Origin: Candidatus Scatovivens sp.
Lineage (GTDB): Bacteria > Bacillota > Clostridia > TANB77 > CAG-508
Length of the DNA stretch: 64,000 bases
Assembly: GCA_051891335.1 (NCBI GenBank)
Contig: JBJFFD010000044.1
Coordinates: 321-64,320 of the forward strand
Reading direction: 5' to 3'
Positions within the stretch are counted from its first letter, which is position 1; every line of letters begins with the position of its first letter. The notes beneath the pieces were generated by a model that had not been told where the DNA came from, did not search any database, and saw only the letters and a list, made by a program, of their open reading frames with translations. The position numbers and the translations under genes were made by a program. This document shows positions 5,512 through 6,140 of the stretch, in pieces.

Positions 5512-5674
5512 TTATTAATACCTCCTATTTTCAATCAATCGAATTTTTTTGTTTATGTTCGCTTGTTTTTCCATTTCAAATAGTATATAGTATTTAGCAT
5601 AGGAAATAAGAAAAGCAGATGTGGAGCTACCACTTACATACACAGTTTTTACTGTGAGAAATGGAGGTGGTGCT

Positions 5675-5788
5675 ATGATAGAATCTATATTATTAGAAAC
5701 AATATGTCTATTATCTTTTGGATTAATAGCAGTTACATTCGTAGCAATTGCCTTAATCATAACTTTAGTTATTTTTTTGAGCAAATAA
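5675..5788 (+). CDS. 37-aa hydrophobic peptide, candidate type I toxin C
   Basis: MIESILLETICLLSFGLIAVTFVAIALIITLVIFLSK. GGAGGTGGTG SD 7 nt upstream. Promoter TTGTTT (5563-5568), 17 nt, TATAGT (5586-5591), with the transcript starting at ATAGGAAATAAG (5599). Confidence 0.45.
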   Translation: MIESILLETICLLSFGLIAVTFVAIALIITLVIFLSK

Positions 5789-5789
5789 T

Positions 5790-5878
5790 ATAAAAGCACC
5801 ACATTACGCTTTCACAGAGCTATGTGGTGCTATTTCATTAACATGGTAGCACACATTCCATGTGCACTTATTTCCTAT
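5790..5878 (-). ncRNA. Putative antitoxin sRNA, module C
   Basis: Consensus promoter on the minus strand: TTGACA (5906-5911), 17 nt, TATAAT (5883-5888). The transcript starts at ATAGGAAATAAG and ends in the hairpin AGCACCACAT...ATGTGGTGCT (5795-5830), which it shares with the toxin C mRNA. Confidence 0.4.
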
Positions 5879-6140
5879 TTTTATTATACACTTTTATTAA
5901 TTATTTGTCAATTAAAACTACACTTGTATTTTATATAATTTTGTGTTATAATATAAATAACTATTAGGTTACTTGTAGATAGGTATATATCTATAAAAGC
6001 ATCTTAATTGCTTATCAATAAAAGTTGATTGAGCAATTGGTGCTCAGATATTACATTGCTTTACGTTTTGAAGTCCTCAGCTCGTAATATAACTTTTAAT
6101 TGATTTTGCTTAATAGAATTTACTTTTGGAGGACTAAAAA

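Follow-up and report, generated by a model that had tools for sequence, protein, structure and literature searches.

The window analysed here is a 64,000-nucleotide stretch of contig JBJFFD010000044.1 from Candidatus Scatovivens sp., and the element of interest, referred to as module C, occupies positions 5540-5911 of it. The unit is about 370 bp long (core stretch about 350 bp) and lies in a cluster with two related modules, A and B. A preliminary description had proposed a type I toxin-antitoxin (TA)-like module, in which a plus-strand peptide gene and a convergent antisense RNA share a terminator, and both the layout and its conservation across a family of modules support that proposal. The family was collected with the motif AGCAGATGTGG-N4-5-CCAC...GAGGTGGTG, which modules A, B and C have in common, in a scan of one genome per species. 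The motif was found at at least 119 sites. The two putative transcripts of a module are called toxin mRNA and antitoxin RNA throughout.

Layout of module C

The left edge of the module (5540-5568, plus strand) consists of the A/T-rich AATTTTTTTGTTT, then TTCGC, then the -35 hexamer TTGTTT (5563-5568), which is followed after a 17-nt spacer by the -10 hexamer TATAGT (5586-5591). TTGTTT agrees with the consensus at three of six positions, and the promoter scan did not list it. This promoter, weak in its -35, gains credibility because homologous modules elsewhere keep the TTG and the -10 hexamer at equal positions; in 42 modules with the same type of peptide (C-type) the -10 reads TATAGT, TATACT, TATATT or TAGAAT. 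The arrangement 'aaaatttgtt..gttcgcTTG' also occurs, with unrelated flanks, at loci L006, L015, L021, L026, L034, L037, L085, L106 and L121, ie the promoter (gTTCGCTTG...TATAGT) and the A/T stretch upstream of it move with the module.

The likely start of the toxin mRNA is predicted at A5599, giving a leader of 76 nt. At or near this start is the 5' box ATAGGAAATAAG (5599-5610; family consensus ATAGGAAATGAG), which forms a 12-nt perfect inverted repeat (I4) with 5867-5878. The leader box AGCAGATGTGG and then the anti-Shine-Dalgarno sequence (anti-SD) AGCTACCACT occupy 5614-5634, the motif common to modules A and B and the genomic sites. A variable hairpin, CACAGT-TTTT-ACTGTG, is predicted at 5641-5656. 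The SD GGAGGTGGTG (5663-5672), 2 nt before the ATG at 5675, is sequestered together with its spacer (5663-5674) in the predicted fold; GGAGGTGGTGnnATG is found once in the 64 kb. The open reading frame (ORF), with homologues P0001, P0002 and P0003, has 37 codons plus TAA (5675-5788) and encodes MIESILLETICLLSFGLIAVTFVAIALIITLVIFLSK. Promoter, leader, SD and ORF, all on the plus strand and read directly from the sequence, lie where the preliminary description had placed them, and comparison with modules A and B bears out its remark that the SD context and the 5' box are the same in all three. An AUG inside the 5' box was considered as the start of a longer ORF. It is in frame in P0001 and P0002 and TAA-interrupted in others, and was ruled out for module C, whose box reads AAUAAG and contains no AUG.

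On the minus strand, the promoter TTGACA (5911-5906), with a 17-nt spacer before TATAAT (5888-5883), matches the consensus at 12 of 12 positions and is the sole such match between 3700 and 6500 in the promoter scan. A convergent TTGAC(A/T)-17-TATAAT promoter, followed by 4 nt and then the 5' box, is found in 95 of 97 parsed modules. It lay outside the search motif, as did the ORF, the leader hairpin and the terminator helix, which are likewise conserved. From the fold and the family alignment, the antitoxin RNA is predicted to be about 92 nt long (5787-5878, minus strand), close to the 90 nt first estimated, and to comprise the 5' box (5878-5867), a predicted hairpin GUGCACAU-GGA-AUGUGUGC (5867-5849), the box GCUACCA (5850-5844) and the terminator. 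Its fold energy is -30.1 kcal/mol, with a z-score of -3.95 against shuffled sequences. The two transcripts converge, as had been proposed, on a shared bidirectional terminator hairpin (5795-5831, both strands), seen in the folds and as inverted repeat I3, in which the stem 5795-5804 (AGCACCACAT) / 5822-5831 (ATGTGGTGCT) encloses a 17-nt loop. At the level of sequence, then, the antisense RNA has a gene with its own promoter and terminator and would pair with the toxin mRNA, which is what is expected of a type I TA locus.

Conservation of the RNA structures

The minimum-free-energy fold of toxin mRNA C, with a z-score of -4.45 against shuffled sequences, pairs 5625-5634 with 5666-5674. Pairing of the SD with an upstream anti-SD was observed in 94 of 95 predicted folds of family toxin mRNAs, a count in which the partners are partly fixed by the search pattern. 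A per-sequence census of the variable hairpin found 38 distinct complementary stems in 89 leaders, for example CGUAAC/GUUACG, UAAAGG/CCUUUA and CAGAGU/ACUCUG. Within the family, 8 of the 12 stem pairs of the terminator helix vary on both sides in a compensatory way, and the helix outscored all 500 shuffles and every slid-register control. For the two helices tested, 86.9% of cells were paired compared to 31-56% when the partners were slid. Covariation was scored by a count on a hand-specified structure together with the stem census; RNAalifold on MAFFT alignments recovered neither the variable hairpin nor the terminator, owing to register shifts.

The antisense RNAs of the family (83 aligned) are predicted to be 85-100 nt long and to consist of the 5' box, a small hairpin and a UUU(U)GCC box, which a linker joins to the terminator. 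Antitoxin C departs from this consensus in the 5' hairpin (GUGCACAU-GGA-AUGUGUGC), in the second box (GCUACCA) and in the terminator (AGCACCACAU / AUGUGGUGCU). The toxin leader of module C carries a matching change, GAGCUACCAC, and the same variant is present, among the matches listed, in L122 only. The second box (5625-5633 / 5850-5844) is identical in the toxin mRNA and the antitoxin RNA, not complementary. Most modules have UUU(U)GCCA here; the two RNAs of module C, like those of L122, have GCUACCA, and the two of L054 have UUGACCA. The same is true of the 5' ends, as both RNAs of a module begin with an identical 12-nt 5' box and not with complementary ones.

Complementarity between the two RNAs

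Toxin mRNA and antitoxin RNA are perfect complements along about 50 nt at the 3' end of each. Module C contains in addition a 10-nt direct repeat (D2). Copy 1, GTGGTGCTAT, covers the SD's 3' part and extends into the AUG as far as its AU (5667-5676, plus strand), and copy 2 (5824-5833) lies in the terminator arm, where the minus strand gives the antitoxin RNA the sequence AUAGCACCAC. Exactly two occurrences of the 10-mer GTGGTGCTAT were counted in the 64 kb, where 0.01 would be expected. Through this repeat the antisense RNA carries a perfect complement, AUAGCACCAC, of the SD and AUG of the toxin mRNA, and the match is the longest of its kind in the family.

Predicted duplex energies were -77, -76 and -99 kcal/mol for the cognate pairs of the three modules and -28 to -43 kcal/mol for the non-cognate pairs. 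Toxin mRNA C, for example, gave -99.1 kcal/mol with its own antitoxin, compared to -30.4 kcal/mol with antitoxin B and -32.3 kcal/mol with antitoxin A. Since each antitoxin is strongly complementary to its own toxin mRNA only, modules A, B and C are predicted to be insulated from one another by their differing terminators. Duplex folding of the long RNAs produced diffuse duplexes and was uninformative. A kissing interaction of the leader loop with the antitoxin 5' loop was rejected, as UUUG and AAAC are not antiparallel complements.

A separate observation concerns the 5' regions of toxins A and B (4090-4160 and 4597-4667, minus strand). Antitoxin C is predicted to pair with them at -34.8 and -38.4 kcal/mol, respectively, more strongly than do their own antitoxins (-27.8 and -25.9 kcal/mol), because AUAGCACCAC matches the SD common to all three modules. 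Cross-regulation of toxins A and B by antitoxin C is possible on this model.

The peptide and its relatives

As expected of a type I toxin, the peptide of module C is small (<60 aa), hydrophobic and membrane-spanning, and its ORF has translation signals of its own. The grand average of hydropathy of the peptide is 2.20. Searches using a 55-aa extended ORF and the 37-aa peptide as queries found the relatives P0001, P0002 and P0003, whose contigs show the same layout. With phmmer, the matches among 1.84 billion representative proteins were P0002 and P0003 only, both closely related to the peptide itself. Solved structures, searched with a profile, gave a chance match to SecG only, Pfam and NCBIfam (E ≤ 10) showed no similarity of the peptide to the TxpA/BsrG family, and the peptide strings had no match in a literature of 8.3 million papers. 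Exact cluster look-ups in protein collections returned one A-type peptide on record, unnamed; the other peptides were missing.

Three peptide types, of 33-39 codons, are found behind one leader. Type A (39 aa, MFMVKVILFF..LYKNWVDKQLHK) is that of modules A and B. Type C (36-37 aa, MIEAVLLEIIYLLLFGLVVETIIVFALIILVIILSK), the 'MIE..LSK' family, is that of module C, and type D has 33-34 aa. Types A and D align with each other and have a tryptophan between the helix and the charged tail. No homology of type C to types A and D was detectable (hhalign probability 3.8%), in agreement with the earlier statement that peptide C is unrelated to the peptides of modules A and B. An alignment of 31 distinct C-type peptides has M1, E3, A26, L27, I29 and S36 conserved and the stop position fixed. 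In the C-type ORFs the second codon position varies least, and the sense frame has the highest synonymous fraction. Peptide C belongs to a rare subtype in which ..VT(F/I)VAIALIITLVI.. replaces ..ETIIVFALII-LVI.. The types also differ in their predicted mRNA folds. The 5' box is paired with the 3' part of the coding sequence in the minimum-free-energy fold of module C and of 34 of 41 C-type mRNAs, compared to just 3 of 47 A-type and none of 7 D-type mRNAs.

Distribution and genomic context

The matches listed are all in metagenome-assembled genomes (MAGs) of uncultured gut Clostridia, from rabbit, goat and human, with Clostridium sp. CAG:245 among the motif-bearing genomes. A scan of viral contigs added one further motif site, a C-type module on an IMG/VR contig. 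Other genes of the window share about 80-88% nucleotide identity with the motif-bearing MAGs, which places the window in the same lineage. Several copies of the module are present per genome, and several MAGs have three or four on different contigs. The neighbouring genes are mobile-element-like (DUF3846, RadC, a sigma region 4-like protein and XRE); a blastn search with 3700-6300 gave no match in phage and plasmid collections. A repeat of the miniature inverted-repeat transposable element kind, ie non-coding, was considered for the family and rejected in view of the conserved ORF with its start and stop codons. The family is abundant in its hosts and was missed by gene callers, Rfam, Pfam and NCBIfam. 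Its approximately 90 natural variants of one compact scaffold offer a comparative system for the evolution of antisense specificity, SD sequestration and toxin exchange.

Some individual loci deserve mention. L121 contains three modules, in the order A-C-A, within about 1.1 kb and L039 contains two, mixed tandem arrays that mirror the A-B-C cluster of the window. At L014, L036, L043 and L120 there are A-type modules with a frameshifted or truncated toxin ORF; at L014 and L043 the antitoxin promoter is still visible despite the decayed ORF, a pattern typical of TA loci. The NUDIX gene beside module A (3288-3713, minus strand) is 88% identical to a gene of L039 (3041-3477), and modules and neighbouring cargo may travel together.

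Within 5563-5911, Rfam gave chance-level matches only (E > 2). Elsewhere in the cluster, the rspL model (RF01823) matches the toxin coding region of module B (4470-4581, minus strand) at 36.9 bits, against a gathering score of 37, and more weakly 3965-4073 (minus strand). The rspL consensus encodes in one frame a hydrophobic peptide (..LTLALNAA..), and this small RNA family may itself be a type I toxin mRNA.

Interpretation of the module

Taken as a whole, 5540-5911 is probably a self-contained unit of a type I TA family that resembles the par locus of pAD1 and belongs to uncultured low-GC gut Clostridia. The anatomy of the unit, its conservation, the structural covariation, the RNA complementarity and the cognate specificity were all obtained by computation. 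From them we infer transcription, toxicity of the peptide, the relative stabilities of the RNAs, the participation of RNases and the biological role, as follows. The moderate plus-strand promoter would give a toxin mRNA of about 240 nt, the 76-nt leader of which would fold so that the anti-SD AGCUACCACU pairs with GGUGGUGCU, with the small variable hairpin bridging the two. Because the SD is sequestered in this way, the primary toxin transcript would be poorly translatable. Its product would be a 37-residue single-helix membrane peptide, presumably toxic through membrane damage. The consensus convergent promoter would produce the antisense RNA of about 92 nt in excess, ending at the same bidirectional terminator. 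First contact would probably be made between the complementary 17-nt terminator loops, and the terminator arm AUAGCACCAC of the antitoxin could also pair with the toxin SD and AUG via the 10-nt direct repeat. The outcome would be a block of translation, cleavage of the duplex, or both. When the labile RNA is lost, for example after loss of the element, the peptide would be made. The likely role of the module is to stabilise the mobile-element-like region around it.

Several points weigh against this interpretation. The subtype of module C is rare, with four copies known, and its pattern had no match in two scans of metagenome contigs. Peptide C ends in ..LSK, without the charged tail that many type I toxins typically have at the C-terminus; it matches no toxin family in Pfam or NCBIfam at E ≤ 10, and Rfam had no match at gathering thresholds over the 64 kb. 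Since the search pattern included the leader motif, CCAC and GAGGTGGTG, their invariance is an ascertainment effect that carries no weight. On the RNA side, the hairpin is followed in the toxin sense by a weak U-tract (UAUUUCAUU), and a loop of more than 8 nt kept it from being called in the terminator scan. The 10-nt repeat is specific to module C, the closest relative, L122, sharing 6 nt of it. Outside the 3' overlap, the complementarity of antitoxin and leader is 7-8 nt in most modules and beats shuffled sequences in just 3 of 93.

The alternative that survives best makes the peptide a small membrane protein that is not toxic, such as an accessory or regulatory subunit, with its level tuned by a cis-antisense RNA and no addiction module involved. 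We regard it as unlikely. The missing charged tail and the lack of similarity to characterised toxins would fit it, and architecture alone is no proof of toxicity. Against it stand the autonomy of the unit, about 370 bp long, its unrelated flanks, its multiple copies, the tandem arrays and the occurrence on a viral contig. Furthermore, some copies with a decayed ORF keep the antisense promoter, the antisense promoter is a consensus one compared to the weaker sense promoter, and the SD is sequestered. These traits are hallmarks of type I TA loci and not of housekeeping small proteins.

A somewhat poorer prospect is that the XRE protein encoded next to the module (4786-5511) represses the divergent peptide promoter, making this a protein-regulated cassette or adding a layer of control. 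The toxin -35 is about 50 nt from the XRE start codon, an imperfect palindrome TTCAATCAATCGAA with 10 of 14 positions symmetric lies at 5530-5543, and modulation of a type I system by a type II system next to it has been described in Enterococcus faecalis (PMC6563280). Among the matches listed for the roughly 120 related loci, however, an XRE homologue adjoins the module only in the window and in an identical Logan contig; at the other loci the nearest helix-turn-helix match is more than 1.7 kb away. The promoter and its upstream A/T stretch belong to the module in other contexts also. The module is widespread, whereas the XRE protein had no relative in 185,579 species genomes, and the exact protein was found on the one identical Logan contig only. 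The suggestion made earlier, that the regulator may control the toxin promoter, is therefore not sustained, and regulation by XRE does not appear, from this distribution, to be a property of the family, though it may apply at this locus. The dependence may run in the other direction. The left edge of module C (about 5540) is some 14 nt from the XRE SD, the promoter scan listed no minus-strand promoter-like site between 5512 and 5680, and transcription of XRE may come from the consensus antitoxin promoter, reading through the module.

It is very improbable that module C is an inactive, drifting remnant of the family. Its subtype is divergent, and the antitoxin 5' hairpin, the leader loop and the terminator are off the family consensus; the 8-nt leader-to-antitoxin repeat of canonical modules, TGTGGTTT, is absent, and in the toxin sense the U-tract is weak. 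Nevertheless, module C keeps intact its ORF and SD, both promoters, the two 5' boxes and the 10-bp terminator stem. The changes are coordinated on the two RNAs, with GCUACCA in both, as also in L122, and module C has gained the 10-nt anti-SD repeat.

That the 95-aa minus-strand ORF (5515-5802), which is open in the window, should be the real gene and the 37-codon ORF incidental is hardly credible: of 41 homologous modules, 15 keep the equivalent antisense frame open along the 69-70 codons examined, but 26 have one to three stop codons in it (median open length 48 codons), leader lengths differ by non-multiples of three in 9 of the 41, no product is on record, Pfam has no match, and the ORF spans the transcripts of both promoters, the leader and the terminator. 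Its openness in the window can be explained, since the first base of its codons faces the second base of the sense codons, which is rarely A in a hydrophobic ORF, so that stops, all of which begin with T, are excluded from the antisense frame. By this reasoning it is a shadow ORF, much as the preliminary description had suspected in calling it an artefact, and in annotation such calls should be replaced by the small ORF and the non-coding RNA.

Beyond the type I TA interpretation, a bolder one can be put forward, which we consider doubtful. The leader and the antitoxin would constitute a portable chassis that has captured at least two unrelated-looking peptide families, and the RNAs would be controlled through sequence identity and not through complementarity alone. 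The antitoxin could have come from an inverted duplication of the toxin leader and could act by mimicking the anti-SD of the toxin or as a decoy for it; or a single protein or RNase, common to the two RNAs, could read both 5' ends. If true, either logic, decoy/mimic or shared reader, would be a form of control not described for type I systems.

Other loci in the window

Positions 7555-8595 (minus strand) encode a radical SAM/SPASM enzyme assigned to the 'ACGX system' (TIGR04340), with a score of 480 bits where the cut-off is 400. Adjoining it, at 8668-8859 (minus strand), is a gene for a 63-aa Cys-rich peptide, ...CGCSGDCSCSGPCSGGCGDGSAD, which is probably a repeat-peptide substrate of the enzyme, the two forming a pair like those of ribosomally synthesised and post-translationally modified peptides. 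To the right of module C, a 12-codon ORF, MRTYPGVYPTTM, lies at 6141-6179 (plus strand), with GGAGG at 6128-6132, a strong terminator at 6196-6216 and an extended -10, TGTTATAAT, upstream at about 5944-5952. The ORF may encode a leader peptide or represent a gene for a small peptide.

Comparison with known systems

Homology searches have found almost no type I toxins in Clostridia outside Clostridioides difficile, in which small transmembrane peptides (the CD toxins) are paired with convergent antisense RNAs (the RCd antitoxins) in modules that are located in prophage or mobile-element regions, several per genome (PMC6563280). Module C shares with these the host class, the combination of a transmembrane peptide with a convergent antisense RNA, the mobile-element-like setting and the occurrence of several modules per genome. 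The C. difficile toxins differ in having a charged, lysine-rich C-terminus, and the complementarity between their RNAs extends over long regions. Module C was found to have no sequence relationship to the C. difficile modules.

In Bacillus subtilis, the txpA/RatA and bsrG/SR4 systems have hydrophobic toxins of 38-59 aa, are carried on prophage-like elements and produce RNAs that overlap at their 3' ends; SR4 is a dual-acting antitoxin, affecting both toxin mRNA degradation and translation (PMC6563280). Module C is similar in having a convergent toxin mRNA and antitoxin RNA that overlap at the 3' ends, and different in that its peptide has no detectable similarity to theirs. The overlap in module C, about 50 nt and essentially the terminator only, is shorter than those of txpA/RatA and bsrG/SR4. 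We know of no identical 5' boxes in either of these systems.

The closest parallel in design is the classic plasmid-addiction locus par of pAD1, with the par-like loci of Firmicutes; par encodes the Fst toxin and the transcripts RNA I and RNA II. Its convergent promoters flank a shared bidirectional terminator whose loops initiate pairing, direct repeats (DRa and DRb) provide a second pairing site over the initiation region, and a 5' stem-loop hides the SD while an upstream helix sequesters the extreme 5' end of the toxin RNA (PMC7472228). In common with par, module C has convergent promoters that bound a unit of about 350-400 bp, an intrinsic, bidirectional terminator common to both RNAs, with complementary loops that could start pairing, and an intramolecular 5' stem-loop over the SD, predicted in its own fold as in 94 of 95 family mRNAs. 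Its short direct repeat makes the antitoxin complementary to the translation initiation region; most members of the family, by contrast, have a second pairing site of just 7-8 nt, placed in the leader and away from the start codon. The location in a mobile-element-like region and the several copies per genome are also shared. Unlike Fst and Ldr, peptide C has no Trp before a charged tail and no P/D/S/T-xxx-G motif, and ends in ..IFLSK. Unlike par, the RNAs of module C begin with identical boxes and not complementary ones, and have no Rfam match. By analogy, module C would work as par does, and it is placed outside the Fst family because it has neither an Fst/Ldr signature nor a match in Pfam, NCBIfam or Rfam.

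The kind of system is thus well known, and the family itself is previously undescribed, being absent from the literature and from the curated family libraries. As far as the sequences indicate, two features set it apart: one regulatory scaffold serves two peptide families between which no homology is detectable, and the boxes at the 5' ends of its two RNAs are identical and not complementary.

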